Below, piece by piece: positions 10,165 to 63,923 of a stretch of DNA of 64,000 nt. This stretch comes from a virus. Lineage: Duplodnaviria; Caudoviricetes. The notes below the pieces were generated by a model. The model searched no databases. It saw only the letters and a program-made list of their open reading frames with translations, and had not been told where the DNA came from. How positions within the stretch are numbered: the stretch's first letter is position 1; the number at the start of each line of letters is the position of its first letter. Location: positions 256,001-320,000 of IMG/VR virus record IMGVR_UViG_3300021514_000002. One strand, written 5' to 3'. Both the position numbers and the translations under genes were made by a program.

Positions 10165-10944
10165 ATGAGTATTTGTGTTCCAAGACATATAGCGTGTGGG
10201 TGGTATGAACCTAATTTTATCGCAGGTAATGAATCCTGTGAATTGCAGATATTTACTGAAAGTAGATCAAGATTATTGGAGGGTGGTACATTTTTTCGCA
10301 GCATTGAAATTGGCCAACATACAGAGAATATACAAATTGGTTGTAAATGGCAAGTTGCCACAGGAGGAAGTCCTGCGTGGAGATATTATGGTGGTGGGGA
10401 TACACTAGCGGATGTTGGACAAGTTGAATTAACAATTACCAACGGCACCACAACTGAAATCTTTTTTGCTGCACAGCAGATAGTAGGTAGTCCTAATGGT
10501 AGTCCTATTATTTGGGTGAATGCAATTCCCAATCTTCGGGCGCAACTAATAGGTTCTCCTAGTGGTTCGCAGCTTGTCGACATGCCCGAGGATGACATCC
10601 AAACTATAATGGGTGGGAGTCCTACAACGTGGAAAGCTTCATTATATGACGCAGATTACATTGGTGAATTTTTATTGAGCAATTTGGTAGGTGGTTCAGG
10701 TGGACCAACGACTGAAACAGAATTGGATAAGATTCGTACTGGTTCAGTAATGACAATGTTGTACATCGATCAAAGCGAAAGTGATAACCCAGATGGTTCA
10801 TTATCCGATGTTAAAGAAACAAGATACTGGAATGGTGCTTGTTGGAAATATTATGACCCCATAGCCATAGCCCCCGACTGCGATGGTTTATCTTTATGTG
10901 GTTCACCATTAGGATCGCCTTTACCACTTCCAACCTGTCCGTAA
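10165..10944 (+). CDS. Hypothetical GSP-rich, Cys-containing protein, probably virion-associated
   Basis: Co-oriented directly after PAAR; 7 GSP tripeptides in 259 aa. Confidence 0.65.
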   Translation: MSICVPRHIACGWYEPNFIAGNESCELQIFTESRSRLLEGGTFFRSIEIGQHTENIQIGCKWQVATGGSPAWRYYGGGDTLADVGQVELTITNGTTTEIFFAAQQIVGSPNGSPIIWVNAIPNLRAQLIGSPSGSQLVDMPEDDIQTIMGGSPTTWKASLYDADYIGEFLLSNLVGGSGGPTTETELDKIRTGSVMTMLYIDQSESDNPDGSLSDVKETRYWNGACWKYYDPIAIAPDCDGLSLCGSPLGSPLPLPTCP

Positions 10945-11025
10945 TTTTGATTGGTAACTCTCTAAATTTTAATGGTAAATAATAATAGAAATTTTGTTTA
11001 CAATATGAATTAAGGAGATAATAAT

Positions 11026-11517
11026 ATGGCTATAACAAAAAGAGCAGGTGGACATCAGCATGTTTACTGGATGGATTTAAAAGGAAATGGCGTATTAACA
11101 GAATGTGCTGTTTTTAAAGAAGATGGATTTGGTAACATATTCTATCTTGAAATTCCAACCTTGGATGGAATTGATAAAAATCGTTTATTGCGCATCATTT
11201 CTAACCGCAATGCGTCAAACTTTGAACTATGGGATTTAATGAGTCAAATAACACTTAACAATGGTCTTAATGCTCTTGAGTATTTCCATCAATTAGTTAA
11301 AGTTATTACACCAGATGGTGTTGTTATGAATCCTAAATCTGGTATTGTTGGTACCGGTTCTGTTGATACTACATCAGCGACCCAGATGGCTTCCATTGCA
11401 TTAAACAATGCACCAGTTGAAAGTGTATCGGAAAGTGTAGCACTTACCCCTGCCCAGAAACGAGCAGCCACTATAGCAGCCAAAAAAGAGTTGCAAAAGG
11501 AAGCAGCAGCTAAATAA
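11026..11517 (+). CDS. Hypothetical protein with Ala/Lys-rich tail
   Basis: AAGGAG RBS; globular N-terminal domain; followed by a terminator. Confidence 0.75.
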   Translation: MAITKRAGGHQHVYWMDLKGNGVLTECAVFKEDGFGNIFYLEIPTLDGIDKNRLLRIISNRNASNFELWDLMSQITLNNGLNALEYFHQLVKVITPDGVVMNPKSGIVGTGSVDTTSATQMASIALNNAPVESVSESVALTPAQKRAATIAAKKELQKEAAAK

Positions 11518-11532
11518 TATAGTGATATATTA

Positions 11533-11570
11533 AAACATAAAAAACCCGCTTTCGCGGGTTTTTTATGTTT
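11533..11570. terminator. Bidirectional intrinsic terminator
   Basis: 17-bp perfect inverted repeat AAACATAAAAAACCCGC-TTTC-GCGGGTTTTTTATGTTT between convergent genes. Confidence 0.92.
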
Positions 11571-11582
11571 ATTATTTTCTTA

Positions 11583-12770
11583 TTACGTTTGTGTTCTTGC
11601 TACGGAAATTGTAAGCGTATAGGTAATCGTAAGAGTCCTATTTGCCGCTTTCAATACTGGCGCAAAAATTAAATGGGTAAGAAGTCTTTCTTGTTCTGTT
11701 GCGGGCGTTATTGCATTATTCTGCACGCCTTTATCTGAACCATCTATTGCTGGTGTTACTATTACGCCCGGTAAATTCGCAAAAAGGTCACTTGCGGGTG
11801 GTGAACCAGCACCACCTAAACCAAGACTAATTGAAGATGTTGCTCCAGAAGTACCACTTGTAAATCTCACAAATCCATATGTTTGTAATCCTTCAATTGA
11901 TGGATATGTTCCAAATGTAGTATCCGTGATAGAAATAGTTGCACCACCCGGCAACGGTGCTGACACAAGCCATGCAATACCTGCAGCAGTTGTTGCATTA
12001 TTTAACGCTTCACATAATTCACCATAGGTAGGATTGTCTGCAGGTGGTGTTAAATAAATAACAGTTTCTGAACCACCATCAACGGTAATTCTGAAATTAT
12101 ATTCCGTCCCACCAACTAAAACAGTTTGATCCGTTGAAGATTTATCACTAACATCAACATCCTGAACACCAGCCGAAGCTGCGGCAGGTTTGCCTGTTGT
12201 AAAAAGCCCAAGTTCATCAAACGTAAAAGTACTATTAATATTATTTGGGGTTTGGTCATTCTCTAATTGCCCTGCGGGTTCAGTCGGGTTAAGCACTGCA
12301 ACAACCACGACTTCCGAAGTTAAACCAAGTTCTCTGCTGCGAGTGCCCGGTCCTGAAACATGTTCGACAGTAGCAGGATCACTGGAAGGATCACCACCGC
12401 CGCCGACTCGTGTTCCAACACTTGGACCTGCTGAACCAGGATCTGTTCCTAGTAAAGAAGAATTAGAATCATCTATTACTTCTGAATACGTTTCATTGTA
12501 TAGGCGAGATTCCCATGTTTGTGTATCTGGTGGCTGGCCATCATTTGGGGTTTTAAATGTGATGGTAAACGCCGCATCGATTTCTGTACCGCCGTTACCA
12601 AACGCTATCCTATGAATAAGATAATTATTTTCATTAGAAAGGGCTCTAGCAATGATCCGTGCCATGTTTTGCGGATGTACTGCGTTCCATTTATCTACAT
12701 ATACTTCGCCAAGGTCATCTTCGATCTTAACATGTCCATCTATTTCAAATGGTGAATTCGTTGAATACAT
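11583..12770 (-). CDS. Baseplate/tail structural protein
   Basis: RIAFGNGGT, FTFDELGLF, LLTHLIFAPVLKAANRTLTITYTL motifs typical of myophage baseplate/tail-collar proteins; late promoter CATAAATA at 12796-12803 (-). Confidence 0.7.
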   Translation of the reverse strand: MYSTNSPFEIDGHVKIEDDLGEVYVDKWNAVHPQNMARIIARALSNENNYLIHRIAFGNGGTEIDAAFTITFKTPNDGQPPDTQTWESRLYNETYSEVIDDSNSSLLGTDPGSAGPSVGTRVGGGGDPSSDPATVEHVSGPGTRSRELGLTSEVVVVAVLNPTEPAGQLENDQTPNNINSTFTFDELGLFTTGKPAAASAGVQDVDVSDKSSTDQTVLVGGTEYNFRITVDGGSETVIYLTPPADNPTYGELCEALNNATTAAGIAWLVSAPLPGGATISITDTTFGTYPSIEGLQTYGFVRFTSGTSGATSSISLGLGGAGSPPASDLFANLPGVIVTPAIDGSDKGVQNNAITPATEQERLLTHLIFAPVLKAANRTLTITYTLTISVARTQT

Positions 12771-13109: not shown

Positions 13110-16100
13110 TCATAAAGACTCTACCCAACCACCCGTATTACCTGTATTTGGTATAGTTTCAATAGTAGTTATTGTAGTATTTCTACCATCATACGTCGGT
13201 GTTACCGAAACAGTATAAATCCCATCGTTATTTATTTCCGGCGAGCCAAATATAGGCGAGCCGCCCGCATTAGTAGAATGTGATATTCTAATGCTATCAC
13301 TCGGTGAGCCGCCAGTAATATCCCCAGTAGCATCGCCCAGTACGACAATTGTATTTGCCGTAGTACCGACAATTAAATATTGGAACCATTGTTGGTATAG
13401 GGCTTTGCCGCTTTCTGTAAGTGGTGAACCACCGAAAATGCCGGTATTGAGGAGGATTTCTGCCACTGTTAATATTACATGGCTATTTGGTGAACCATAC
13501 TGCGTAGCGTCTAATATTGTATAAATTCCATCATTGTTTGGGGAACCTATAGAGTTCGTTATTTCGATTACTGTATCGGCCAATGTGGGTGGTGAACCAG
13601 TCTGCGGTTTAAAAATATTAAACACATCACCAGAAGCGGTATCTGGAATGTATATCCTATTCACTAATGGTGAACCTATTGATTCCGTCCCATCAATGTG
13701 AAACTTATACCCTTTTAACATATCAAAGGTTTCAGCAATGGCCGCGTTTGTATCAAATGCACCAATGAATGTATTACTAGGATCAGCAGTACTGTCGAAA
13801 ACACGGGCTTCAATAAAATCATCTATACGAAGTCTTGGACTTAATATTTCAAAAGAAGTAGTAGATAATATATTAACACTCGCAGGCGCGCTATTTACAT
13901 AAACTTCCAACATTAGGGGGTTCGGAAGTATAGGCGAGCCAACTAGTGGAATCGTTAATGTAGTTAAATTGAATACTGTTTCCGCTACAAATATACTCGA
14001 TTCTGTCGCAAAAAACGTTTCAATTCCAATTCGTTCTCTAGACGAGTTTCCTGTAAGAAGATCATTATAACCAGGAATTTTAGTATATTCCAAAACCCAG
14101 CCAGTATCGAGATTGTTTCCAATTGTTGGCGATGGATATTCTGGAACCGAATTATCATAATATTGATATATCATTCTATAATACATATATCCTGTATCAG
14201 TATCAACCCAATGTGCTGTGTTGCGCGGGATTTCTACCCAACCTTCCGACGGCGAACCTGTAAGTAAAAAACTATATTGTTTTAAAATACCGGGGGCTGA
14301 CAATACATCATCATTCGGTGAAGTATCAAACCACATGGTATCTTCTACGGGTGATATTGGTGCGGTATCTGATACCGTTACAGTTGGTTCACTACCACTT
14401 GTAAAAATTGTGGATGGTGGAAGATCAAACCCAGCATGGGAATCTTCTATACCATGTGCTATAATATCATCAGAAGCCCATACACCAATATTGTCAATAT
14501 ATAACCTATCTTTAATTCCAATCTTTATGAGTGTTTCAGGTACGACTTCACACAATTCTGGTGTTTGTCCGAAACCAGGCGATAAATATGTTAGCACGCC
14601 TTTTACAAATTCGTGGAGTTCACCTGTAGTATCCGTATCGTCATATGCCTCAGCAACTGCAATTGTTGTGCTGTTTGTACTAGAGCAATATATTGAGTCT
14701 GTTGCAGTATATGAACCATCATTTCTAATAGAAGATGTAACATTAAATTGCGTACCTTGTTTAAATATTGTTTGTACGTTTCCTTCAACAATAAAACCAT
14801 TTAATAATGGACTACCACAAGCAGAGGCACCATTGCCAATAATTAATCTACCACGTACGTGGCCTATAATATCTTCGTGTACGCGAATGTGAGTTTCATT
14901 ATTTGTAAATGTTGAATATAATGTTGTATAATTGCCGACTTTGCTTCCTGTAATTACTTTTATTCTGACGCCTTGTTTAAAGAAACTAATATAATTACCA
15001 TCGACGATAAACACATTTGATGGTATTTTTAATTTTACGAAACCATCAACAGAGGAATCGTGAATACTACCTACACCAAATGTAGTGATGGGATATTCTG
15101 GTGAACCTAAAACACCATGGGCGATGGATTTTATTATATAAGTCGTATTGTTATCTGTTGATTTAACAACAGAAATCTCATCACCTACAAAAATATTACT
15201 ATTTTCATAATTTCCTTCTACTACAAAATATGTTGGCGAGCCCTGTGAAAGTCCTACAATAGTAGCATATGCGACACCTTCATTTGGTGTCTGTAATAAA
15301 GTGGCAGGCGATGTTGAATTGTAATATCGCAATGCGTTACTATATGATAATATCTTTTTGTATTCAATTGCGACAATAGAAATCAACGATACATATCGTT
15401 GATTCTCCGTAATATTTGCTACAACAGGTGGGACTAAAACCATTCCTGTAATAAACACGGTAGTATAAGCACGGACAGAATTAGTGCCTTTGGTAAATAC
15501 CGAACTAACGATCAACACAGATCCATTATTATTAACATCTACGGTTTTTATAAATCCACTAACATCATCAGAATTTACAATTTGGCCGTCTACTTCTAAC
15601 GTTGTTGATGGAATCGGTGACCCAACATTAGGCGTGACTGCGGTAATTTTATATCCAGTATCATTATATAATGATCCTGAAACGGTAAAAATATCATTTA
15701 CACTATATTGTGCAGTTTTATCACCTAACACTGTAAATAATCCACCTGTAACAGGCGAGCCTGAACTTGCTGTCACATCAATTATTCTATCTTCAATAAA
15801 GCTCGTTATTTTAAATGTAAGATTAGAGGATGGTGTAAATAACGCACGTTGATCGCCAAGAACAATAAAAGAATTACTAGTAATTGCAGGAAATTCAGGA
15901 ACTGTTTTTGACGGATCAGGTGATAATATAGCTATAACATCTGGATCGTCATATGGCAATGAGCCAAATCCACCATCAGAACATCCAAGTTTATTAATAT
16001 CATATAGGTACTCCATTTCAATATCGAGTAAATAGTTTTCTAATAAAGTAACATCAACCAATTCTTGACTGACGTATTCAACCAAAGACTCAATCACTTT

Positions 16101-16178
16101 AGTATGATATGGTTTTATATCATTTACGTAATCTACGAGTCCTTGGACTGGATCTAAACCTTTAATATTACTTGCCAT
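13110..16178 (-). CDS. Baseplate/tail structural protein with about 7 repeated beta modules, GSP-rich
   Basis: N-terminal DYVNDIKPYHTKV; repeated F.V.G[DN]...F..G....V..S..NDG.Y.[IV] modules; 15 GSP. Confidence 0.75.
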   Translation of the reverse strand: MASNIKGLDPVQGLVDYVNDIKPYHTKVIESLVEYVSQELVDVTLLENYLLDIEMEYLYDINKLGCSDGGFGSLPYDDPDVIAILSPDPSKTVPEFPAITSNSFIVLGDQRALFTPSSNLTFKITSFIEDRIIDVTASSGSPVTGGLFTVLGDKTAQYSVNDIFTVSGSLYNDTGYKITAVTPNVGSPIPSTTLEVDGQIVNSDDVSGFIKTVDVNNNGSVLIVSSVFTKGTNSVRAYTTVFITGMVLVPPVVANITENQRYVSLISIVAIEYKKILSYSNALRYYNSTSPATLLQTPNEGVAYATIVGLSQGSPTYFVVEGNYENSNIFVGDEISVVKSTDNNTTYIIKSIAHGVLGSPEYPITTFGVGSIHDSSVDGFVKLKIPSNVFIVDGNYISFFKQGVRIKVITGSKVGNYTTLYSTFTNNETHIRVHEDIIGHVRGRLIIGNGASACGSPLLNGFIVEGNVQTIFKQGTQFNVTSSIRNDGSYTATDSIYCSSTNSTTIAVAEAYDDTDTTGELHEFVKGVLTYLSPGFGQTPELCEVVPETLIKIGIKDRLYIDNIGVWASDDIIAHGIEDSHAGFDLPPSTIFTSGSEPTVTVSDTAPISPVEDTMWFDTSPNDDVLSAPGILKQYSFLLTGSPSEGWVEIPRNTAHWVDTDTGYMYYRMIYQYYDNSVPEYPSPTIGNNLDTGWVLEYTKIPGYNDLLTGNSSRERIGIETFFATESSIFVAETVFNLTTLTIPLVGSPILPNPLMLEVYVNSAPASVNILSTTSFEILSPRLRIDDFIEARVFDSTADPSNTFIGAFDTNAAIAETFDMLKGYKFHIDGTESIGSPLVNRIYIPDTASGDVFNIFKPQTGSPPTLADTVIEITNSIGSPNNDGIYTILDATQYGSPNSHVILTVAEILLNTGIFGGSPLTESGKALYQQWFQYLIVGTTANTIVVLGDATGDITGGSPSDSIRISHSTNAGGSPIFGSPEINNDGIYTVSVTPTYDGRNTTITTIETIPNTGNTGGWVESL

Positions 16179-16195: not shown

Positions 16196-19100
16196 TTAAT
16201 CATCGAAAATGCCACTAGTTTGAAAAGGTCTGATTCCGTGAAGCGATATCATTGACGTTTTAAATATTTCAACATATTTTGACTTTGTGGTAAATGCGTC
16301 TTTTAATACAGAAAAATACATTCTATTTACGTTCGTAAACGTAAACGTGTTATATATTTCATCCATTGCTTTAATTATATTGTCTGTCGTGTTGAAATTA
16401 TTATTTTCAAAGAAAATATCAATATCAATTGGAGTAAAATCAATATTAGGATCAACAAGATAACTAACGATAGTATTTAGTGCTAAGTTACCATTCACAA
16501 ATGACTGTCCAATATCTAAACCATATTGTGTGTCTGTGTCATATTTTTCATCATATAATTCGCGTTCATATGAAGGGACACGAACAGACGGATCTGTTAA
16601 TTTATATCCAACTATAGATTCTGTTATTTTATCCCACTGCCATCTATCTATATTAAACTGTTGTTCTTGTCTAAATATCTTCCATTCTTCATGTAAGTTT
16701 TTTAAACCAAGGTTGCTAACATTTTCATTCTCAACATCTAATGTATCACGCAATGTAAAGTTTCTAGAAAATCTAACAGTATAGCGGTTGTCTGCATTAA
16801 CAATTCCCTGTAGACCACGAATAACCGTCTGTGTAAAGCGGGTTGGTACATCTACACCTTTATTATCTATGCCAGTATATGTAATCGTAATATCGTTGAG
16901 TGGGCTACCTGTAGCTACAAAAGAACTCGGGCTACCTACCTCAGACGTAAATGGTGGCTCATGAAGTCTTACAAATGTTTGTAGGGGTGAGCCGGTATTA
17001 TAAACATCATATTCCGTTGATGGGATATTCACCCCATTGACTTCTACTATAATATCATTTTCAAAGTCAGGTGATATCAATAATGTTAGCGCGAAAGCAT
17101 CTGGTGAACCCGAATGTGCAAAAAATTCCGTACGTAATACGTTTATATTATCCGTTGGTATTGTTGCTGCTGGTTTCACTTCTTGGAAGAACATATGAGC
17201 AGTTGGAATACTTACTAATTGATGTTGTGTTTCTAAGATCGACATAGTTCTATTTTTACCAGATGGTTTAGTTCCTTTATTTCCTACCCAGAAGTAGTAC
17301 TTATATGTAATATTTCCCAATTTATCATAATATGGAACCTGTGTATATTCATATTCTTGACGATGTGTTTCTGGAGAGCCTGCTAATAATAAATCAATTC
17401 CTGTTTGTGATTTTGGAACTAATTGTACAAATCTTACAATATCCGCCACGTTTGCGGCAACAATCGTACTAGAAGTTAATGGACTTCCAATTGGTGAAGT
17501 AAGAGGCATGTTCTCTACGAGAAGTGAGCCATTGACGTATACGTTCACTAAGTATTGAAGAGGTGAGGCAGACTGTACAAATTGTGACACAGGAACATCG
17601 AAAGTAAATGTTCCATCTAAATTATCAATCCCATCTGTTGCTGCGTATAATTCTTCGAACTTATTAACTGATTGTATCCAATCAACTCCATCTTTTTCAA
17701 GTAATACCTTCCGTGCAATACCTGCCTTACGAAGATGTTCAACAATTGTTTTATCACCTTCTTCTTTCGCAGCTAATGCATCCCATTCTGATGGTGGTAC
17801 GTCGGATTCTACCCATTCAAAGATTTCAATATCAGCCCAGTCAGTAAGTTGTCCCCAATTACGGAAACGTTCTGTGGTATCTGTAAAAACTTCCTTACTG
17901 TAATACGGAAGGTAATCTTGGTTTTTTGTGTTTAACCATGTAGTTCCCACGAACGATTCTTTCCAGATTATAGTATTCGTAATTGTTTTTGATGTATTAC
18001 CATAAAGTGCAGGATCATTATCATTTTGCAAATCTACATTATGTATCGCATTACTGTAGTGAATGCCACGCGCTGGATCCCAATATTGTATAGGCGAAAT
18101 ATGTGTTGCTGATTTTCTATCAATTATTCTTGCAGGATCTTGAGCATCATTGTTAAATACCATACCCCAAATAGTAACATCATCAGTTAAAGACATCGTA
18201 GGTGAGCCACTGAATAACATTTCAATTATATTATTATTAATAATCCTATAATGAATTCCTTCCTTAAGGGTTTCTGTTGTTTGTGTAGCACTTACATATT
18301 GGGTGAGTTCAATCGCATCTGCATCCAAATCATGTCTAATATAATTAAGCATAGGCGAACCAGAAATACTAGCAACCATTTTATTCTTTACTTTCAGCGC
18401 AAAGTACAAGATCTTACCATTGTTACGCAGTACACGTGACTGATCCGGTTGGTTGTACCAACGATCAGTATTTGCCATTTTTATCGGCGTGAATGTATCT
18501 TCAACAATAGAATCGTCGTCTTCGTTGCTAATAAATTCTAAACGAAGTTCATTAGATCTCGCATCCACAGTAGTAACGTACATTTCAGGAAATTCTTTCT
18601 CGGCAATAGAACCAAAGCTGCCAAGTTTAATTGCCCAAAAATCATCAATCTTCGCATCAATAAATCTTCGCGAATTAATAAATGCATTAACCGCGTTTAT
18701 GGAACCTTTACTTTGGATTTGACCTCTCCAAAATAAGAACTGTGATTTTTGTGATAAATTCAAATTAGATAGATATTCTACTGGTCCGTCATAGCCTAAC
18801 GTTTTACGTGAATATTGCGTCATTAAATTACTTTCAAGAGTGTTATGCGTATCATAAGCATTTCTTAAATTTTCGACTCCGGCTTCAATATTTTCTTTAA
18901 TATTTGCGCCTTGATTAAAGAACGTTTCGAGGTAATAACCACCAACATTTGGTCGTTGCGTAAACTCTGGCTGTCTATTAAATAACATTTCATATTTAGT
19001 TACATTTAATCCGATAAATGGATCGTATAATAGATTTCCATCTGATGTATAATTGCTTAATATCATAGCATGTTCATAGGCATCAACAAATAGGTGTAAT

Positions 19101-22100
19101 CCACCAAGATGTGTAAGCGTATATTCTGGTGATATTAGTGGAATCGTAGGTGTAGCATTAATCGCATCAATTACACTGACCTTGGTTTGCGTATCTTGAC
19201 GAAATACACGAAGTTGATCTATATTAATACGATTACCATCTTGATCGAATATCAATTGCGAAGTTCTAATATCTTCTGATGGACCTGTAATAATATTTGA
19301 AACTATACCACGCGATGGATTGAACCACGCAGCATTTCTAAACGGATTGATTTCAAAATCTTTAATGATTGCACCGTATTCAGTAGGACTAGAAACAGAT
19401 AAACTACCAACGCTTGTAATTGATGTTATGTCGATGACGATGCCATCTTTTGCATCTTGTTTAGATGCTGCTAATCTAAACGTATACATGTCGTCGCGTA
19501 TTAAATAATAACGTATACCACGTGATAATGGTGTTGGGTATATTGAATTTGAGGATATGATAGTAACAGGCTCGCCTGTTATAAAAGTTTTATTATCGCT
19601 CACAAATGTCCATATATTAGTTGCCGCATCGACAGTAACAGGATATCTATCATTAACCTGTTCTCTTACAACTCGTTGCGAATATGCATAAGTAATAAAC
19701 CGTTCTATTTCAATCTGCCAATTAACAAGGCGGCCACTATCAGGATCTTGTAATGAACTATCTTCATTTATCTTCCATCCACTGTCTTCAATATATGCAT
19801 CGTATCCATGAATGACATTAATAAGCGTTTGCATTCCCTGTACTGCTCTTGGAGTAATCGCCTGCAAGACATGGGATTTATCTATTGAATAAAATCTCCA
19901 ATTATTTGTTGTTCTTTCGCCTGCGTTTACTAAGAATGTATTTAAAATTTCACCAATAAAATGATCTTTGTTGCCAGTTGAAGTTATATCAATTGCGAGA
20001 TTCGTGTTTGCATCTTCTAATGTTTCAGAAAGAGCAAAAGTATTATTAGATAATCGTATAATAAAATACTTCGTTAATCCATTTACCGTATCACCTTCTA
20101 ATGGTATTGGAAGTACTTCTGCGGTTGATAAGTATACACCATCCCCCGTGCTCCATGGAAGTGAACGATAGTCCGCTGTAATTGTTCCGTCTTTAATATT
20201 AGACAATAATGCCGCATTAACAAATATTGTAGTGTTTTTTGTTATACTATCGTATGTTGATAACACAACAACATAATCGCCATTATTACCTGTAGAATTT
20301 GCCACAACAAATTGTCGTCCTGCTGAAAATACATACGTCTGGTCACCCTCAACAGTAAACGTTTTATTAAAGGTATCGAGGTCAGAGATTTCCCAAGTAT
20401 ACATTGTACATACATTGGTTGTAGGATTTGTGTAAAATTGGTAATTATGTACATCATAATACTTAATGGTTCTACTAATCGGCAAATTTGTTTTTAATTC
20501 AAATCTCCAATCAAGTTGATTATCATACCGAGCAATATTATAAGGGATATTAGTAATTCCAATTTTAAGGGCATCTAACCAAAAATCATCAACGCCTGGA
20601 GCTCGCTTTGAAGTTATATTATAATCAAAATTAGTAATATTAACATATCTATGTGCGATATTTAATGATGGGGTATCGACAAATGATGCAAATTGATACG
20701 TTAATGGTGCTTTCCAACCAGTCCACAATTCACGGAAATCAGAGAAATTTGCATCGTAGCCCGTGTACCTATTGTAGTTTACATACCATTGATTTAATCC
20801 ATTACTCTTAAATTGTGTGTTATTTACAATTTCACCATGAAAGGTAATTCTATTATGACTAGGTGTATTTTTTGCATCTCTATCAACTTGCAAACCACCA
20901 ACCTTAGTAAAGTTAAATCCAAATGTTGAAGACACATATCTTACAGGATCGATACGATATGCTACAGTTAATTGGTCATATAAAAATTGTGAACTTACTC
21001 TCCAATTCCATTCAACATTACCAGAATCCCCGAACGCGTAACTTGAATTTGGTGCGATAACTTCTGTACTATAGTCAAAATAAATCGACCGTATGATACG
21101 ATCAAGAAATAATGGCACTGCTGTAAACGCACCAACAAAATCCCAATAAGGCGGGAATACGCTATCAGGTTCATATGTTGTTGTACCGCCGTCGGCGCTA
21201 ACAGCAAGGTTGCTTATATTAACACTAAAATAATTAAACGTAGGTAACTCTGGAACGGATAAGAAATATGGCGAGGCGCTATCCGTTGCAGGAATGCCCG
21301 TAATACCAACAACCCCATTAGGATATGCTCTACCTTGTGGAATTTTACCAATACGAATATTCTCCCACATACCGTAGGCTTGCTCTATTCTTCCTGAAGG
21401 AATATCATTTGCAACCAAACCCACAATTTTTATTTCTGTTAAGTTTGTGGTTGGATTATATAACGTACCATTAATAAAACTAACACCTGTCGTAATATCA
21501 CCAGTTACTATTTCTTCTTCTACTGTAATAGTGAAGGCGTTTAACACATGATTCACATTTTTGATAGTATATGTTTTTATAATCTCGTTCGTACTAGAGA
21601 ATCCTATTGGCTCCGCAATAGAGAAAACCATTCCAGGAAAATATATTCCAGCAGCAGGATCTGGTGGGAAATCATCAATAATAATAGAGGCGGTGCCCGC
21701 TATTCCTACGCTTACCGCCGTAATTATATCATGTGCACCAACTGTATATTGTCCAGTATGTGATGGCGAGCCTGTTGCACTATCTATATTAAACGTGGCA
21801 TTTGAAACGAAGTTAGCATGATAATCCCCTTTAATTGCGAAGATACCGTAGGTGCTTGGACTTCCACTACCAATGTTATTGTTGTCCAATGCAATAATTT
21901 CAAACCCGTGTTTATATTTCCACGTTCTAATACCCCATTGATTGATATCATCGTTATAGTATTCAGCATCCCACCAGTCAGGTTTATCGCTATACCCTTG
22001 AAGTATCCATGGCTCAGCATGTGGATATGGTGTACCATATATCTTGGTGTATAAATCTTTCCAGTATCCACCAGATTCAGAACCATCATTTAAGTTATTT

Positions 22101-30300: not shown

Positions 30301-30581
30301 CTAAGAATAGATTCCTTACGCTCAGCAGTTGTAATAAAATTTTCATGGGCATTTAAATCAAGACGATATGCCAACACTTCACCAACATAGGCGAAGATTT
30401 CAAGGATGGCAATAAATTCGCTTGATTCTATATAATCATTGAAGTCTTCTGGAAAGTATAATTTTACATAATCCAATAAACTTTCTTTAATAGTACTATA
30501 GTCGAATGCGTTGAAGTTTACACGTGTAAATACTTCATGTGCTCGTGTCCAAGCTTCCGCTCTTGAAATTTCTATTGCCAT
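27366..30581 (-). CDS. 6: Baseplate wedge protein (T4 gp6-like)
   Basis: NAFDYSTIKESL...PEDFNDYIESS...LAYRLD..A.ENF..TA....S...LA...Y and QDRMVNGRDY motifs. ATG 30581 with GAGG RBS preferred. Confidence 0.85.
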   Translation of the reverse strand: MAIEISRAEAWTRAHEVFTRVNFNAFDYSTIKESLLDYVKLYFPEDFNDYIESSEFIAILEIFAYVGEVLAYRLDLNAHENFITTAERKESILRLAKLISYKASRNIAARGLVKITTIQTTELVTDAQGRNLSNAKIVWNDLNNPDWKEQFLLVMNRVLEQDFGTIAPNERVQIEDVLFELYTWGNLSLRGNGITTFNYSASSAGTSFPMELVPVTLTDTSPVEKRPERNLKFSLLYGSDGLGDGSDTTGFFCFTKQGTLQRQEETFDGITPNQTFDLAINNINETDVWMNNVDSNTRAVLETNPYAKILPHLDDSSSRYGEWIEVALANAQNILFNTNKNRQKFETETLDNDQVRLVFGDGEFSDIPSGDFDVWYRTSSNRNSIIQKTSVVDKIASFTYLDLTNTTQTLTFTFSLINSLQNASVSEDIEHVRRVAPSVYYTQDRMVNGRDYNSFMLQDPSILKLQSVNRTFSGDSKYITWHDPKEYYEDVRIFGDDLALYWLENDVENGGFMSSNRALLSNEILTNLVEPLLCSADFYNIMIEEFEKSSNTINDLRCTFTSTESTTIQAALDNAATSANPRVDLYFSADADAWTVDSHPTALLSLFMVRIEAQFSASKLSGWVVQWKTKRMNAQSQTTKFRHSNTTTSIVNFNTLKSSDDNIKILGANLDGSKTGMMGENKDYNVLGQELVTQSLPNAGVPDDNRLSVLPTDTNDDGVPDNLTQSTLLNATDTFIVSGSPANGEIVFTNTVMYYTLGKEAESVTVTTDDGVTYVFDSVDPHSPAVGKWGYPTGSPLGTELTGLVVNFVLTGSPLPVSVTVSTKQYVYFNRASSTDTWVPVDDTSIKRTLWYSDLANTTNLYKREYGRYPLNFAWFYTTPRFHLVDPTASNIIDTFIITTGYYEGITRWLENKTDVKPDEPSPLDLRTAYDTLLQHGMISDTVILQAGKFKLLFGSRAIPEIRAKFKVIRPTINNLTDNEVKVKIVDVIRTYFNISDWDFGSTFFFTELSTAIHSALGPEINSVVLVPSYTTNQFGDMFQVQSRENEIFIPDISTENVEIIQSFTKENIRQ

Positions 30582-30582
30582 G

Positions 30583-53738: not shown

Positions 53739-53800
53739 CTAATTGTGGATTCGCACATACTATTATGGTTGTGATATATAATATCGATAAAGGAAATAAT

Positions 53801-55330: not shown

Positions 55331-58300
55331 ATGTCCGGATTTGACCCGATTGGCGATTCTGCAAATAGCCTACGAACAGAAGGCCAGGAAATAAAATTAA
55401 AATTCAAACAAGGCGTCCCTGCGACTAGTCAAGGGACGATTGAATGGAATATACCAGTACCCGCACATGGTTGTGTTTCTGGCGAAACAGGCGCATATGC
55501 AGGTATTATATTTCTTCTTAGCACTGAACCCCTTGATGCCACAAATATTCCACAAGATGGGACAGTTTATGTAGCAGATCCAACCGCAGATTTTGATTTA
55601 AGTACAGCAGATATGATTGGCAATGCCATTGTTGTTGGTGCGGTATACGAATGTGAACAGAAAGGCCGTGGTGAAACATTAACAACTTCTCTTGTTATAA
55701 GTAATTTACAACAAGGTATATCATACTACTTGGGCGGTTACGCAGTAGATTGTCAATATCGTTATCATTCCGATGGTATCCGCTCCTATTCTGATTCTTA
55801 TGGTGAAAAGGATGGTACTAGTATACCATCTACCCAAACTATTAGTCTTGGCAACGAGTCAACAGGCGTGTTGCCAACAGATGGCACAGGATTAGTTCCC
55901 AGTGTTAATTATGAGTTTGATTTGATCGTAGATAATTCATTCCCTAATGGGTATGATTATAAGACGATACCGATTACAATTGATGGTATTAACGCAGGCA
56001 CGTATCAAGATTTATTAGACACAATTAAAGCACAGATAAAATTATCCGATAATCCACCACAATCGCCTGTTCCACCACATACTAATGATTTTTATTGGAA
56101 CGCAACAGAAGAAGAATTATATCAATACGATGGTACTAATTATAATTTAATAGACGTTATAAAAGAACTTACTGATCCTGCTAATGTAGTGGTAGGTACA
56201 TATTGGTATAATCCTACTAGTAAAGTTTTACAGAATTATGATAGTCTCGCAGGCTCACCAATACCAGCCGCCACGTGGAACGTTGTTAACTTTTTGGAAA
56301 CTGAATCTGATCCAACAAATCCAGCATGTGATTTATATTGGTACGATAGTACGCTCGCACGTAAATGGGATGGTTCTACTTGGTGCAATCAAGTAACATT
56401 AATATCATCAACAGACCCAAGCGATTACCCTACATTAGATTGTGGTACATATTGGTACGATTCAACTAATACGACATTATTCGGATGGGACAATATATGG
56501 GTAGAAAAATCAGCTATTTATTGGCCAGAGGCTCCCACCGCGTTATCTAATGGTACTTATTGGTTCAACAATACGTCTTCTGAAATGTTCCGTAGGGTTT
56601 CATCTGCGTGGACTGACATTACAATAACCACAAAGATTCAAGAAACCGAGCCAACTGTTCTATTGGATGGTATTGTATGGTATAAACCATCAACAGAAGA
56701 ATTAAAAGTATATTCAACAGGCTCACCTTTTGGATGGATACTAACAGACGTATTAGTTTGGGCAGACGATCCAACAGATATAACATCATGTGATTTATGG
56801 TGGAACCAAACAACAAACGTTTTATCTGTCTGGGATGTTGTTAATAGTGAATGGGATGCGGTTGTCAGTTTTACTATTTCCGTATTAGATCCTGCTTTAC
56901 CTGTAGTAATAGTAACTGATACTGTTTGGTATGAACCTACTAATGGTGTTTTGACGCGCTGGGATGGTAGCGATTGGGTTTCTACTACACATGTAGAGAA
57001 AGCAACCGATCCAACACAACCTAGTGTTGGCGAAGGTTGGTATAAACCATCAACAAACACATGGAATATATGGAATACTCCAGTTGCAGGGTGGAATATA
57101 ATAGATCCTATTGATGCCATTATTGATCCAACTAGTATACCAAATGGAACTTACTGGTTTGATACCACCACCATTGCATTAAATGTTCGCAACGGCATTA
57201 GTTGGATTTCTGTAACATTTTCTACAGTGCCATTCGTTCCAGCAAGAAAAAGTTTATGGTTTGATACTTCAACCTCGGTACTAAATGAATGGAATGGTAC
57301 TATGTGGACTGAAGCCACTCCTACTGTAGAAGTATATTTTAATACGGCAGGTGGTATAACTTTCCGTACAGTAAAAAGAGGAAGTGATACTGCTATTTTA
57401 GTACCAGTACCTCCTGGTTCTCTTTCAGCAACTGATACCGTTGTTAATGGTTTTGCAGATTTTTCTGAATTCGATATAGACCCCGTATCAGGATATACAT
57501 TCGAGCGTGAGACATCTGGACGAATATACACAGCACGAAATATTCCAGCTAATTCGTTTCTATGGAGTAATTTAAAATACGTAGGTAAAATTCAATTTCC
57601 AGGTGCTGGTAATGATGGTAAATCTGGCGTACCTTCTTATGCTGAGCTTGGTGTTGGTGATGACGGAACTCCTGATGAACGTCGTGAATTAATGGATAGT
57701 ATTCGCTCCCAACTTGGTTATCCCGTAGTCGATGTTGAGTTAACCAATTATCAATTAGATACTGCAATCCAAGGTGCACTTGAATCATTCAGAAAACGTT
57801 CTGGCGCTGCTACGCATAGAGGGTTCTTTTTCTTAAATATTGAACCAGGAAAACAACAATATATATTAACAAACAAAGCGTTGGGATACAATAAAATTGT
57901 TACTATTATGGAAGCTAAACGCTTTACATCTGCATTCTTATCATCTGCGCATGGTTCAGGGGTTTATGGTCAAGTAGTATTGCAGCATTTATATAATATG
58001 GGTACTTTTGATTTAACTAGTTTTCATTTGGTGGCACAATATGTTGAACAATTGGAACACTTATTCTCGACTAGGTTAACGTTTACATTCCATGAAAGTG
58101 ATCGTGTTTTTTCATTGTTTAATTCTTTTACCCGCCCTGAAAAGATATTACTTGATTGTATGGTCGAGCGAACAGAACAAGATTTACTTAAAGATAGATA
58201 TATTAAAACATGGATTGAGCGATATGCGTTATCAGAAGCAATGATGATGTTAGCGCATATTCGTGGTAAATTTGCATCATTACCTGGTGCAGGCGGTGGT

Positions 58301-58432
58301 ATTGCATTAAACGCAGGCGAATTAATTTCAATTGCGCAATCTTATCGCGAAGAATTATTAAATCAGATAGATGAATTTATAGTTGATTTACCAGAAGAAG
58401 TTGGAATGTATAGTACGTTTATTTTAGGATAA
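55331..58432 (+). CDS. 13: Neck protein (gp13-like C-terminal domain) fused to a long W-rich repeat region
   Basis: C-terminal IRSQLGYPVVDVEL...QLD.AI..AL..FR...W...YAL...M..L..IRGKF..LPG motif; TATAAATA at 55296-55303. Confidence 0.85.
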   Translation: MSGFDPIGDSANSLRTEGQEIKLKFKQGVPATSQGTIEWNIPVPAHGCVSGETGAYAGIIFLLSTEPLDATNIPQDGTVYVADPTADFDLSTADMIGNAIVVGAVYECEQKGRGETLTTSLVISNLQQGISYYLGGYAVDCQYRYHSDGIRSYSDSYGEKDGTSIPSTQTISLGNESTGVLPTDGTGLVPSVNYEFDLIVDNSFPNGYDYKTIPITIDGINAGTYQDLLDTIKAQIKLSDNPPQSPVPPHTNDFYWNATEEELYQYDGTNYNLIDVIKELTDPANVVVGTYWYNPTSKVLQNYDSLAGSPIPAATWNVVNFLETESDPTNPACDLYWYDSTLARKWDGSTWCNQVTLISSTDPSDYPTLDCGTYWYDSTNTTLFGWDNIWVEKSAIYWPEAPTALSNGTYWFNNTSSEMFRRVSSAWTDITITTKIQETEPTVLLDGIVWYKPSTEELKVYSTGSPFGWILTDVLVWADDPTDITSCDLWWNQTTNVLSVWDVVNSEWDAVVSFTISVLDPALPVVIVTDTVWYEPTNGVLTRWDGSDWVSTTHVEKATDPTQPSVGEGWYKPSTNTWNIWNTPVAGWNIIDPIDAIIDPTSIPNGTYWFDTTTIALNVRNGISWISVTFSTVPFVPARKSLWFDTSTSVLNEWNGTMWTEATPTVEVYFNTAGGITFRTVKRGSDTAILVPVPPGSLSATDTVVNGFADFSEFDIDPVSGYTFERETSGRIYTARNIPANSFLWSNLKYVGKIQFPGAGNDGKSGVPSYAELGVGDDGTPDERRELMDSIRSQLGYPVVDVELTNYQLDTAIQGALESFRKRSGAATHRGFFFLNIEPGKQQYILTNKALGYNKIVTIMEAKRFTSAFLSSAHGSGVYGQVVLQHLYNMGTFDLTSFHLVAQYVEQLEHLFSTRLTFTFHESDRVFSLFNSFTRPEKILLDCMVERTEQDLLKDRYIKTWIERYALSEAMMMLAHIRGKFASLPGAGGGIALNAGELISIAQSYREELLNQIDEFIVDLPEEVGMYSTFILG

Positions 58433-58484
58433 TACACGTAGTACAAAATTATTTTACAAAATATAGGTTAAGGAGAAAAACCAA

Positions 58485-61222: not shown

Positions 61223-61998
61223 TGGCCACATCAGTATTAGATAATTATCATTACGACGCGCAATTGCGTAAGTACATTGTACAGTTTGCGGCAGTATTTG
61301 CTGGCATTCAAGTAGAAGTTGGAAAGCGTGATGATATTGAACCGCATTTAATTAGCGTGCCTATTAAAAATGCCAGCGTGGATCGTGTCGTTGGTCATAT
61401 TAAAAGCGAAAACACCCAAAATAAACCAATTAGATTGCCTATTATGTCATTCCAACTCGTAAATCCTGACCTCGCGCCAGACTTACGCAAAGGAATTGGT
61501 ACGAAACGTCGATCCACATACATGCCCACTGGTGGATTATTTCCAGATGACATGAAAGTAGTAGAACAACGCCAGCCCGTGCCTTATCGTGCCTTATTTG
61601 AATTAACTATATGGGCAAGTAATCAAGATCAACATTATCAGATTGTGGAGCAAATTCTTACACTTTTCGATCCGATACTTCAAATCCAAACCACCGATGA
61701 TATATTTGATTGGTCTAAATTAACATCCATAGAACTGACTGATGTTAGGTTCGATGAGACTGTTCCACAAGGTTCAGATCGTCGAATCATCCAGAGTAGA
61801 CTCGGTTTTTCAGTACCAATATATCTATCTATTCCTGCGAAAGTACACAGTAATTATGTTAAGGATATTTACCTTAGAATTGGAGCGGCGGGCACAGATT
61901 CCGAATCTTCATATGACATAATTGCAGATCTTGATTCTCAAGGCGTTGAATATGAAAAAGTATTCTCTTTAGATGATATCGATATAGATAAAAAATAA
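61222..61998 (+). CDS. 15: Tail terminator / sheath stabilizer (T4 gp15-like)
   Basis: YHYDAQLRKYI.QF..VF, RLPIMSF, P.PY...FEL.IW..N.DQ..QI.EQIL..F.P motifs. Confidence 0.88.
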   Translation: MATSVLDNYHYDAQLRKYIVQFAAVFAGIQVEVGKRDDIEPHLISVPIKNASVDRVVGHIKSENTQNKPIRLPIMSFQLVNPDLAPDLRKGIGTKRRSTYMPTGGLFPDDMKVVEQRQPVPYRALFELTIWASNQDQHYQIVEQILTLFDPILQIQTTDDIFDWSKLTSIELTDVRFDETVPQGSDRRIIQSRLGFSVPIYLSIPAKVHSNYVKDIYLRIGAAGTDSESSYDIIADLDSQGVEYEKVFSLDDIDIDKK

Positions 61999-62026
61999 CA
62001 TATTTTATCATTTTTCGGTACGTCCG

Positions 62027-62034
62027 TATAAATA
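62027..62034 (+). promoter_or_regulatory. T4-type late promoter TATAAATA
   Basis: Exact consensus upstream of the tail sheath gene. Confidence 0.8.
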
Positions 62035-62090
62035 GTAATAGCCACGTTATGTTAGTGAAGAAATAACGTTTAGTTAAGGAGAATCCCGAT

Positions 62091-63923
62091 ATGGCAACTT
62101 TGGTAAGCCCAGGTGTAAGTGTAACAGTAACAGATGAAAGTTTTTTCATCCCTGTATCAGCGCCTACAGTCCCTTTGTTTTTTATTGCGACAGCCGATGA
62201 AAAATTCCGCCCTGATGGTTTAACGCCAGCAGAAGGCACATACGAATATAATGTTGTTCGCACCGTTACATCTTTAAATCAAAGTACACAATTATATGGT
62301 GTTCCAAAGTTTCTTGAAGATGATACATCAGGCAAACCACATCATGGTGATGCCCGTAACGAATACGGATTATTTGCTTTAAACCAATACTTGGGATTAG
62401 GCAATCGCGCATATGTTGTACGCTCAAACGTTAACTTAAATGATAATATTACAGATATCCGCACTATGTGGGATACAAAAATTCTTGAAGCGCAAACAGT
62501 ACTTCAAAACTTAATTCAGAATTTTTTAAATGAAAAGGATGCAATTGGCACACCAGCGCAAGTACCTGATGGTTCACCTGTTGGTTCACCAATAGTATAT
62601 GTAGACGGCTCACCGTTAGTATACGTTCCGAATCTTCCAGGCACATCAACAACCGTAACCGCCGCCGAATTACAAGATCTTGCAAGAACTGCAACTGCAG
62701 AATTGTTTTCTTCATATTCGTTTAATATCGTAGATACTGATTTCTTTGGTGCCGTGGGCGTAGCCTCTGGGCTTCTTGTTTATGCTAATGGATATTCATT
62801 AGCATCAACGGGGGTCTTTGATGGATTTGATTACATGACATCTAATATTGGCTCATATCCATCTTATCCTGGTGGTACAGGTTCACCTCCTGGTGAATTT
62901 ACTGCAGTAGAGGGCGCGGCGTTCTTAGTTGCTGCTGCTGATGATATGAAATTCACGCTTGAATTTTTATCACAAACAAGTCTTGGTGCTAATGATGCCG
63001 CCCGTCGTACAGCGATTGTAACAGCACTTCAAGCATCTATTGTTTCAAATACAGATATTCGTGCTGAAAACTTTGATTATAATTTAATTACATGTCCTGG
63101 TTATCCAGAGGTTGCAGACGAGTTACTTAGTCTTGTTGCAGACATGCAGGATGAAGCATTAGTTATTGCTGATACTCCAATGAATTTAGATCCAGATGGT
63201 ATTACCAATCCATCAACGGGTTGGGCTGGTACTGTTGCTCGTCAACGTTCTACGCACATTGCATATTATTATCCATCAGCCCTTGCCTCAAATCTTGATG
63301 GTAAGAATGTTGTTTGTTCGGCAGCAGGTGTTGCTCTTCGCACATATACTTATAGTGATAATGTATCATTCTTATGGTTTGCACCAGCTGGTATCCGTCG
63401 TGGTCTTATCACAGGAATATCAAATCTTGGTTACGTAACAGGTGAATTAGGTACCCCAACAACATTTGTTGAGGTAAGTTTAAATCCTGGTCAACGCGAT
63501 GCGTTGTATCAATACTTGGCATCTGGTGATATTAATCCATTAGTATTCTTCCCAGGAAATGGCTTCCTTGTTTGGGGACAGAAAACTTCTGCACCTGCTG
63601 CAAGCGCAATGGATCGTGTTAGTGTTTCACGGCTTATGAAATACATTAAACGTCAACTTCGTAGAAATACGTTAAGTTTCGTATTTGAACCAAATGATCA
63701 ATTAACACGTGATAATTTAAAAGCGGTTATAGATGGCTTCCTCGGTGACTTAATTGTTAAACGTGGATTATACGATTACGCTACTATTTGTGATGAAAGT
63801 AATAACACACCGGATAGAATTGATAGAAATGAATTATATGTTGATATTGCATTGAAACCCGTTAAAGCGGCAGAATTTATCTACATACCAATTCGTATAG
63901 TTGCAACTGGTGCAGAAATTTAA
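62091..63923 (+). CDS. 18: Tail sheath protein (T4 gp18)
   Basis: LVSPGVSVTV.DES, WFAPAG..RG, INPL..FPG.G..VWGQKT, FVFEPND..TR, DESNNTP..ID.NE..VDI..KP.KAAEFI motifs. Confidence 0.98.
   Translation: MATLVSPGVSVTVTDESFFIPVSAPTVPLFFIATADEKFRPDGLTPAEGTYEYNVVRTVTSLNQSTQLYGVPKFLEDDTSGKPHHGDARNEYGLFALNQYLGLGNRAYVVRSNVNLNDNITDIRTMWDTKILEAQTVLQNLIQNFLNEKDAIGTPAQVPDGSPVGSPIVYVDGSPLVYVPNLPGTSTTVTAAELQDLARTATAELFSSYSFNIVDTDFFGAVGVASGLLVYANGYSLASTGVFDGFDYMTSNIGSYPSYPGGTGSPPGEFTAVEGAAFLVAAADDMKFTLEFLSQTSLGANDAARRTAIVTALQASIVSNTDIRAENFDYNLITCPGYPEVADELLSLVADMQDEALVIADTPMNLDPDGITNPSTGWAGTVARQRSTHIAYYYPSALASNLDGKNVVCSAAGVALRTYTYSDNVSFLWFAPAGIRRGLITGISNLGYVTGELGTPTTFVEVSLNPGQRDALYQYLASGDINPLVFFPGNGFLVWGQKTSAPAASAMDRVSVSRLMKYIKRQLRRNTLSFVFEPNDQLTRDNLKAVIDGFLGDLIVKRGLYDYATICDESNNTPDRIDRNELYVDIALKPVKAAEFIYIPIRIVATGAEI

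Follow-up and report, generated by a model that had tools for sequence, protein, structure and literature searches.

Can a motif of only three residues, repeated in the tail proteins of a bacteriophage, mark positions that another molecule reads? This question is raised by a stretch of 64,000 nucleotides, here called the window, which comprises bases 256001-320000 of a 363,531-bp IMG/VR virus record (IMGVR_UViG_3300021514_000002). The record is that of a jumbo myophage with 36% GC, and in the window its replication genes are followed by a T4-like virion module. The gp23-type capsid protein is 61% identical to that of the Xanthomonas jumbo phage XacN1, 55-59% identical to those of Xoo-sp13 and the Stenotrophomonas phages CM1 and RAS14, and 50% identical to that of the Ralstonia phage RsoM2USA. 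The motif is the tripeptide Gly-Ser-Pro (GSP), which an earlier note on the same DNA had taken for a sequon for modification, or a docking site, distributed over the whole virion. The analysis described below gives good support to the view that GSP is an exact recognition tag in proteins of the distal tail. That the tag is a sequon for modification of its serine, with O-glycosylation as the probable chemistry, falls somewhat short of an even chance.

Enrichment of GSP in Distal Tail Proteins

The 46 main open reading frames (ORFs) of the window were translated, and the number of GSP copies in each protein was compared with the number expected from the composition of that same protein. Eight proteins, with together 8,589 amino acids (aa), contain 47 copies, where 2.6 are expected, and the other 38 ORFs contain none, exactly as the earlier note had counted. 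The carriers are:

10165..10944, plus strand: 259-aa Cys-flanked protein, function unassigned and no match in Pfam or PHROG; 7 GSP, at residues 68, 108, 112, 130, 151, 246 and 250 (P = 1e-9)
11583..12770, minus strand: 395-aa conserved virion-module protein (phrog_11259); 1 GSP, chance level (P = 0.2)
13110..16178, minus strand: 1022-aa fibre-like protein; 15 GSP (P = 1e-17)
16196..27304, minus strand: 3702-aa giant baseplate/fibre protein, orthologue of XacN1 ORF325; 14 GSP (P = 1e-13)
27366..30593, minus strand: gp6-like baseplate wedge protein; 3 GSP (P = 6e-4)
52170..53651, plus strand: gp23-type major capsid protein; 1 GSP, at residue 141, chance level (P = 0.2)
55331..58432, plus strand: gp13-like head-tail adaptor (phrog_211); 2 GSP, borderline (P = 0.05)
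62091..63923, plus strand: tail sheath; 4 GSP, at residues 161, 165, 173 and 264 (P = 5e-5)

Five of the eight (the 259-aa, 1022-aa, 3702-aa, gp6-like and sheath proteins) are thus significant individually. No tripeptide of the window is more enriched than GSP, at 12.3-fold, and the enrichment of the second, SPL, at 4.4-fold, is a by-product of it.

When the count is extended to the whole genome, 87 copies are found against 15.3 expected (5.7-fold), and 72 of these sit in 13 fibre, baseplate or sheath proteins with at least two copies each. Shuffling the residues within these 13 proteins gives on average 3.8 copies, and at most 12 in 2,000 trials. The remaining proteome (97,061 aa) contains 15 copies, where chance gives 12.2. 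An exact short motif is accordingly enriched in distal-tail proteins only, and the rest of the proteome is at chance. The confinement to eight virion proteins proposed in the earlier note holds within the window and not beyond it, since five more fibre-like carriers are found at 208-222 kb (11, 4, 3 and 2 sites) and at 26 kb (3 sites) of the genome.

The second most enriched tripeptide genome-wide is GCP. It ranks there because the members of a paralogous non-virion family carry one to three zinc-ribbon repeats of the form H-x3-G-GCP-x-C each; all 15 GCP copies belong to such repeats, and a joint G-[S/C]-P motif was dropped. Members of the family lie at genome positions 51683-52456, 95647-96585, 204591-205574, 240986-241579, 250530-251462 and 347486-348412, and at 53765-54601 of the window; one of them matches the Pfam treble clef DUF4379.

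Selection on the Exact Peptide

The signal resides in the peptide. In the 13 GSP-rich genes the GSP-coding pattern occurs 72 times in frame, never in the other two sense frames and four times antisense, and all six serine codons are used. When 40 sites that are conserved between orthologues are compared, 39 differ synonymously, mostly by 2-3 of the 9 nucleotides, and at six of them the serine has switched between the TCN and AGY codon families. In-frame occurrence, codon diversity and family switches together rule out a motif at the DNA level. The earlier note had drawn the same conclusion from codons of both serine families, and its readings of these codons and of the motifs at 52590-52598 (capsid) and 62571-62615 (sheath) are correct.

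Selection also acts on the exact tripeptide. In a pool of 45 proteins (44,429 aa) with at least two GSP each, taken from this phage and six related contigs, there are 275 copies where 14.1 are expected, a 19.6-fold excess. Variants that differ in a single residue stay near expectation in the same pool: ASP 1.5-fold, TSP 1.3-fold, GTP 1.1-fold, GAP 0.8-fold, GDP 0.87-fold, GSA 1.1-fold and GST 1.1-fold, with NSP, DSP and GNP likewise at about 1-fold and no xSP variant above ASP. Gly-Ser not followed by proline occurs 292 times against 293 expected, and Ser-Pro not preceded by glycine 122 times against 150. Preferences in the flanks are weak and nowhere exceed 0.45 bits; G or T is favoured at position -1, and L, A or I at position +1. 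ASP and SSP, which had been taken for variants of the motif, must be given up as such: in the window they occur 5 times against 3.8 expected and 8 times against 4.1.

Consider then a cell in which nothing reads the motif, and GSP is simply the tight turn preferred between beta-strands in the fibres of this group of phages. Such a turn might speed the folding of trimers, rigidify loops or resist proteases. Turn preferences are degenerate, and yet the similar turn-formers GTP, GDP, GNP, GAP, NSP, DSP, ASP and GSA do not share in the excess. This explanation is taken up again below, where the placement of the sites and their distribution among relatives bear on it.

A second possibility is that the count has been inflated without function, by slippage duplication and by shuffling of modules. 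Tandem GSPxGSP pairs at a spacing of 4-5 residues occur in 11 cases, and domains have been shuffled among sheath, fibres and the giant protein. Two paralogous module families hold about 16 of the 72 sites. One is a fibre domain with the sequence GSPxxDGxYT, and such repeated modules, with their minority of the sites, suit a structural role as well. The other, GSPxGSP-I-[IV]-[WY]-V ... GSP, is common to the 259-aa protein (residues ~100-135) and the sheath insertion (~155-180), which indicates that small segments are shuffled between unrelated virion proteins. The remaining sites, about 56 of 72, lie in unrelated contexts. The diversity of codons and the family switches at conserved sites also speak against a by-product of mutation, as do the retention of sites well above background in 14 orthologues and the presence of the motif in insertions away from any pre-existing GSP, both described in the next section. 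The by-product explanation is disfavoured, and we consider it very improbable.

Conservation, Gain, and Loss of Sites

For comparison, the full genomes of XacN1, Xoo-sp13, RAS14 and RsoM2USA were fetched, and closer relatives, denoted here by G numbers, were taken from IMG/VR. The contigs G001-G003 and G008 are 17-34% complete and G004 is 90% complete; G007 comes from the same sample as G001 and is the non-virion part of what is probably the same phage.

Aligned with G001, the 1022-aa fibre retains 11 of its 15 GSP sites, where other tripeptides are retained to 22%. The corresponding figures are 7 of 14 sites against 31% for the 3702-aa protein, and 3 of 7 sites against 5% for the 259-aa protein. 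Across 14 orthologues of the fibre, with 51-71% identity, several GSP columns are invariant while their flanks vary. At the same time sites are gained: relative to this phage there are 13 gains in G001 and 12 in G003, and the gp6 orthologue in G001 has six GSP, five of them at different sites. In the gp6-like protein itself, all three copies lie in a C-terminal extension (residues 743-816) that follows the core alignable to XacN1 (residues 8-740).

New sites come with short insertions. All 21 inserted segments in the fibre alignment, which represent about 9-10 independent events, contain or abut GSP, and some of the GSP-bearing insertions adjoin no pre-existing copy. The GSP copies of the giant protein lie mostly within short lineage-specific insertions such as ASGSPVS, LIGSPNT and TAGSPAA, and in the GSP-poor sister L173 they are absent or degraded, as when VAGSPIT is matched by VAGTPVA. 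The alignments support positive selection for new GSP copies, which would arise by way of such micro-insertions. In the GSP-poor G004 the sites of this phage are aligned with gaps (17 of 45) or with G-x-x. From this follows that the turn glycine is older than the Ser-Pro, a circumstance that favours a structural origin of the motif.

The conservation does not extend over the whole virion. None of the four sheath sites is shared with relatives (G001, with 82% identity, G003 and G004), and neither of the two gp13-like sites is shared with any relative. Both sets lie in variable insertion regions; that of the sheath spans residues 149-269, approximately, and cannot be aligned to relatives. The single capsid site is present in G001 and G003 and absent from G004 and XacN1. 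Since no sheath or gp13-like site is shared even at 82% identity, and the capsid is at chance level, the description of the motif as virion-wide, coating head, neck, sheath and baseplate, was overstated. What is conserved is a phenomenon of baseplate-peripheral and fibre proteins, that is, of the distal tail.

The placement of the sites was modelled with AlphaFold2 for fibre residues 600-1022, with a mean predicted local distance difference test (pLDDT) score of 60.6 and scores of 70-90 in the beta-rich cores. In nine of the ten GSP copies all three residues are predicted to be in coil or turn, immediately next to strands. The tenth belongs to a hairpin whose two-residue turn is S237-P238, with the glycine as the last residue of a strand, so that in the model no Ser-Pro of the ten lies inside a strand or helix. 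Sequence contexts agree with turns between beta-strands, and the motif is thereby placed in loops and short insertions, as the earlier note had it. That all sites are of the strand-turn-strand kind is also what a purely structural role would give.

Distribution among Relatives

How widely is the enrichment spread? None of the full genomes of XacN1 (0.95-fold), Xoo-sp13, RAS14 and RsoM2USA has an excess of GSP, the ratios being 0.89-1.03. Among the contigs from IMG/VR the counts are:

G001: 75 GSP against 6.4 expected, 11.7-fold
G002: 26 against 4.3, 6-fold
G003: 23 against 6.7, 3.4-fold
G006: 28 against 3.7, 7.6-fold
G008: 19 against 3.5, 5.4-fold
G009: 55 against 3.2, 17-fold
G004: 12 against 15.2, 0.79-fold; 90% complete, capsid 77% identical
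G007: 2 against 4.2; non-virion contig

In addition, all 17 database homologues of the 1022-aa fibre have 8-21 copies, where 0.3-0.9 are expected. The densest carriage occurs in G009 (IMGVR_UViG_3300009514_000363), where two adjacent proteins of 1116 aa and 1442 aa at 40848-48536 hold 20 GSP each; the pair is an insertion relative to this phage, at a position equivalent to ~259 kb of the genome.

In a tree of gp6 the rich and intermediate genomes all fall within a single clade (support 99/98), and the XacN1 clade and one further clade are uniformly GSP-poor. Within the rich clade at least 3-4 changes of the trait are needed, as exemplified by the sister pair L178, with 11 sites, and L173, with 2. 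The enrichment of GSP thus belongs to a single clade of uncultured jumbo myophages related to XacN1.

These data return us to the tight turn without a reader. The fibres of G004, L173 and XacN1 are homologous to and alignable with those of the rich phages, and they fold without GSP. A trait that is gained and lost among close relatives is hard to square with a requirement of the fold. The outcome by which the earlier note would have had the motif down as a generic turn, a similar enrichment in unrelated beta-rich fibres, is not what is observed, and we find a purely structural role unlikely.

The distribution bears also on the possibility that GSP loops are multivalent docking sites, bound without covalent change by a chaperone, a decoration protein, a clade-specific small ORF product or a ligand on the host surface. 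The exactness and multiplicity of the motif suit recognition, and small ORFs restricted to the clade do lie beside fibre genes. One of them, an 86-aa ORF at 12807-13067 of the window (minus strand), is situated directly downstream of the 1022-aa fibre gene and may encode a fibre assembly factor. Every GSP-rich relative has this ORF, with 66-89% identity, and G004 and the XacN1 group lack it, but it is present, with 52% identity, in the GSP-poor RsoM2USA. Moreover, three residues make a very short epitope for specific protein binding, the fast turnover of individual sites means that no fixed geometry is preserved, and no candidate partner has been identified. Docking is in our judgement quite unlikely.

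The GSP-poor relatives have peculiarities of their own. In XacN1 (AP018399.1; 83-134 kb, 203-213 kb and 235-281 kb), and in Xoo-sp13 and RAS14 as well, TPT and PTP are enriched in 12-16 fibre-like proteins; TPT occurs 325 times in XacN1 against 26 expected. An analogous sequon was considered and rejected, the copies forming long low-complexity Pro-Thr linkers and not dispersed single motifs. GT8 (glycosyltransferase family 8) and DUF115/Maf-like genes lie directly beside some of these Pro-Thr-rich fibre genes in the XacN1 group. The genome of RsoM2USA (MG752970.1) contains 24 copies of QDW, where 3.4 are expected, and none of its proteins has three copies or more.

A Putative Modification Sequon

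A recognition sequon would predict that the motif is exact, that sites turn over rapidly while their density is kept, and that the trait is restricted to one clade. The observed pattern fits these predictions, and to that extent the modification sequon proposed in the earlier note stands.

The mechanism that we propose is the following. New GSP copies would arise repeatedly in strand-loop-strand turns that face the solvent, and selection would then keep them there. The turns concerned would be those of the fibres and the giant baseplate protein, together with those of the gp6 extension and, here and there, of the insertion in the sheath. The serine would be the acceptor of a cytoplasmic, phage-encoded O-glycosyltransferase, for which the candidates are a TPR (tetratricopeptide repeat) + GT9-like transferase with a catalytic domain similar to that of the Ser-heptosyltransferase TibC, an enzyme of the GT8 family, and DUF115/Maf-like proteins. 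Fibres would then leave the cell decorated with glycan, which might be further methylated or sulfated. As the earlier note had remarked, no obvious glycosyltransferase lies in the window; the candidates were found elsewhere in the genome.

The TPR-GT9 Operon

The first candidate belongs to an operon in the late module:

342691-346441 of the genome (L163:14691-18441): operon directly after fibre and RCC1 genes, from a sulfotransferase to a 447-aa protein
345098-346441 of the genome: 447-aa TPR + GT9-like candidate transferase, assigned by fold and structure comparison

The operon consists of the sulfotransferase (PF13469, E = 1e-16), a CxxCxxCC protein, a homing-endonuclease insert, a 183-aa ORF and the 447-aa protein, which has 676 homologues. 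In a model of the latter with pLDDT 93.8, DSSP assigns ten TPR-like helices over residues 4-173, followed by the Rossmann-type strand-helix repeats of a GT-B fold. The top ~40 Foldseek matches of the model are the protein O-glycosyltransferases SPINDLY and OGT, at probability 1.0. Its catalytic domain gives Z values of 17.1 to the GT9 structure 3tov, 15.3-15.8 to WaaC/WaaF and 15.3 to TibC (4rb4), with 230-242 residues aligned by VIA-align at a root-mean-square deviation (rmsd) of 2.9-3.7 A, and is closer to GT9 than to OGT, which aligns to the whole chain with Z about 12 and rmsd 16 A.

Sequence searches are less specific. No NCBIfam family matches at E up to 0.001; in Pfam, Glyco_transf_9 is found at E = 0.017 and 14.9 bits, below the 22-bit cut-off, and GT41 is not found at E up to 1; a profile search of the PDB gives weak TPR matches only. 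Among the invariant positions of the family are residues of the types D, R, W, T, S and K; for TibC the conserved catalytic residues are given as Asp110, Arg286, Trp305, Thr226 and Lys230 (PMC4358343). XacN1 ORF334 was considered as a homologue and has no similarity.

The operon is conserved in the GSP-rich G006, with 57-75% identity, and absent from the five GSP-poor genomes (G004, RsoM2USA and the XacN1 group). At its site in G007 (IMGVR_UViG_3300022562_000870, 91175-100960) there are instead ORFs of 2172 aa and at least 1088 aa, with no GSP and no homologue in this phage. Beyond the clade a TPR-GT9 cassette is widespread in jumbo-phage contigs, where it follows RCC1-repeat fibre genes (L261, L287, L288, L289, L291 and L292). 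Its core consists of a sulfotransferase, a YkgJ-like Cys protein, a methyltransferase-like protein of ~182 aa and the TPR-GT9-like protein, and its variable inserts include a GT1/GT2 fusion, GT1, GT2, GT9, GT25, methyltransferase, carbamoyltransferase, radical S-adenosylmethionine (rSAM) and adenosine 5'-phosphosulfate (APS) kinase genes. The gene content of the cassette suggests an island for protein glycosylation, in which the genes that shape the glycan vary. A prediction of the complex between the TPR-GT9 protein and fibre residues 730-929 scored 0.00, which is no answer and is evidence neither way. The S-S-P-V-Q motifs of the RCC1 repeats beside the cassette, which we take to be ordinary RCC1 consensus, are uninformative.

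Other Candidate Enzymes

A cluster at 44-51 kb of the genome (GT8/Maf-like genes at 44286-50750) contains GT8 and two DUF115/Maf-like genes, of which one is a firm assignment and the other a weak one. It also contains methyltransferases and an rSAM/SPASM gene, the fifth rSAM gene of the genome. It is conserved in G007 (GT8 82%, rSAM5 85%, with GT8 and DUF115 genes ranging over 65-82%); G004 and RsoM2USA have none of the genes of the operon or of this cluster. Two further genes concern the sugar donor: a KdsA (KDO8P synthase) equivalog at 57811-58641 of the genome (L162:9811-10641), which scores 437 bits where the cut-off is 242, and a CMP-sugar-type cytidylyltransferase (CTP_transf_3) at 176783-177400 (L293), with 158 bits. 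They may constitute a donor pathway of the CMP-Kdo (cytidine monophosphate-3-deoxy-manno-octulosonate) type, which could feed Maf-like transferases or the lipopolysaccharide of the host. GT2 (PF00535) has no match in the genome.

The tag could also be the target of some other covalent chemistry: phosphorylation or O-sulfation of the serine, hydroxylation of the proline, rSAM chemistry, or the action of a host enzyme. Ser-Pro is the classic target of proline-directed kinases, a sulfotransferase adjoins fibre genes, an APS kinase occurs in a related cassette, and the genome encodes five rSAM genes. However, neither Pkinase nor the 2-oxoglutarate-Fe(II) prolyl hydroxylase family PF13640 has a match in the genome, which leaves the proline hydroxylation suggested in the earlier note without an enzyme there. 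Phosphorylation fares no better. The sole kinase-like candidate, a 212-aa ORF, was rejected as the reader because it does not track the motif, being present in the GSP-poor XacN1 and Xoo-sp13 and absent from the GSP-rich G003 and G008.

Four of the rSAM genes form a cluster among fibre genes, at 213041-218232 (L001:8041-13232) and 219249-220904 (L001:14249-15904) of the genome. It comprises three firm rSAM genes, for which the best match is a PapB-type ranthipeptide maturase (E = 2e-36, far below the cut-off), and a 523-aa ORF. The 551-aa fibre upstream of it has an alternating-Cys tail at its end (TCGCTCTCTCTCTCNCAHSKC), and this fibre is more likely than GSP to be what the cluster modifies. 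As a modifier of GSP the cluster was rejected: rSAM1-4 are absent from between the flanking fibre orthologues in the GSP-rich G002. No rSAM gene was found in the G001-G005 contigs, and a pattern search of IMG/VR gave no relatives of the four-gene cluster, which is specific to this phage. For such other chemistries taken together the prospects are poor.

Comparison with Known Systems

The nearest models for a glycosylation of this kind come from bacteria. TibC glycosylates serine, and not threonine, in the cytoplasm (PMC4358343). It belongs with Aah of Escherichia coli to the bacterial autotransporter heptosyltransferase (BAHT) family (PDB 4rap, 4rb4), and the proposed system would share with that family the heavy glycosylation, in the cytoplasm, of a beta-rich surface protein at a large number of its serines and a catalytic GT-B fold of the GT9 type, to which the 447-aa protein aligns (for TibC, over 240 residues). 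The differences are that the phage protein has an N-terminal TPR domain in place of the distinctive features of TibC, that BAHT substrates are autotransporters whereas here they would be phage fibres, and that BAHT enzymes act without a sequence sequon whereas the phage tripeptide is exact. Because of this last point, which also tells against the proposal as a whole, and because the phage enzyme fails sequence membership, a resemblance is claimed and not membership.

The OGT/SPINDLY enzymes (GT41) are similar in that a TPR superhelix is followed by a GT-B catalytic region, and in that they are cytoplasmic Ser/Thr O-glycosyltransferases which select their substrates through the TPR. They differ in the catalytic domain, which in the phage protein is nearer to GT9, and we know of no report that OGT or SPY prefers G-S-P.

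Among phages, those of mycobacteria have phage-encoded glycosyltransferases that decorate virion proteins in the cytoplasm, with the glycans on C-terminal extensions of capsid and tail-tube subunits (Freeman et al. 2023, as cited in PMC12619734). The proposed system would have in common with them the cytoplasmic glycosylation of virions by phage-encoded enzymes. It would differ from them in host, which is actinobacterial there, in enzymes, and in the site of the glycans, which in the mycobacteriophages is no dispersed tripeptide of fibre loops; nor is a sequon known to have been described for them. Closer at hand, XacN1 virions contain at least two glycoprotein bands positive in periodic acid-Schiff (PAS) staining (PMC5852040), so that virion glycosylation is experimentally indicated in this phage family. 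XacN1 has glycosyltransferase genes inside its baseplate and fibre modules, and homologues of GT8 and Maf-like proteins adjoin its fibre genes. It is unlike the present phage in its lack of a GSP excess and in the Pro-Thr linkers of its fibres.

As regards the evolutionary pattern, an analogy can be drawn with the Vp54 protein of chlorovirus PBCV-1, a case of a virus-specific sequon, and with N-X-S/T glycan shields. In these, too, short acceptor motifs on exposed virion surfaces shift within variable loops, or are newly inserted into them, while their density is kept. They are N-linked and belong to viruses of eukaryotic hosts, and the analogy is one of pattern only.

Several observations weigh against glycosylation of the GSP serine by the enzymes named. 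No enzyme co-varies cleanly with GSP among the genomes compared. TPR-GT9, GT8, Maf-like and sulfotransferase genes are present in this phage, but none of them could be tied to the motif, which is also what a structural turn would give. TPR-GT9 was not found in G001-G003 or G008, contigs that are only 17-34% complete, and the operon is missing at the syntenic position in G007 and G008. In the cassette phages L288, L289 and L292, the sampled virion genes contain 2 GSP against 2.6 expected over 7,895 aa, so that possession of the cassette does not suffice for the motif. The GSP-poor XacN1 group, too, has GT8 and one Maf-like gene, beside Pro-Thr-rich fibres. In the fragmentary contigs, the genes found to be exclusive to GSP-rich genomes were only small non-enzymatic ORFs. 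To our knowledge no glycosyltransferase uses G-S-P, and a search of the literature for a G-S-P sequon found no report. The fibre model is of only moderate confidence. Finally, the phage is known from a metagenome alone, and an enzymatic process, its being glycosylation and the identity of the enzyme are what we infer.

Implications

Relative to the earlier note, the observation is confirmed as stronger, in that the motif is exact, clade-wide and under ongoing selection, and as narrower, in that it is limited to the distal tail and does not extend over the entire virion. The count that was called for has given 87 copies against 15.3 in this genome and a 3.4- to 17-fold excess in GSP-rich relatives.

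The most far-reaching interpretation is that GSP is the first exact-tripeptide O-glycosylation sequon of a bacteriophage, by which TibC-like/OGT-like or Maf-like/GT8 enzymes coat the distal fibres, and that the coat evolves like a glycan shield. In this form the proposal is possible and rather doubtful. The donor might be of the Kdo type or a heptose, with later sulfation or methylation; the coat would grow by micro-insertions that add GSP loops, and a lineage deprived of the enzyme would lose the coat altogether.

Glycosylation of phage virions is barely documented. The glycans on mycobacteriophage capsids and tail tubes are the established case, to which the PAS stain of XacN1 can be added, and no acceptor sequon is known. 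If the proposal is true, GSP would be a marker by which modified virion surfaces can be read from sequence in metagenomes, and it would open a way to study how phages shield their fibres or adjust them to the recognition of a host. Should the enzyme be found, tag and enzyme would make a compact pair for protein engineering. Even if the fibres are not glycosylated, an exact tripeptide under such selection in probable surface loops has no described explanation.

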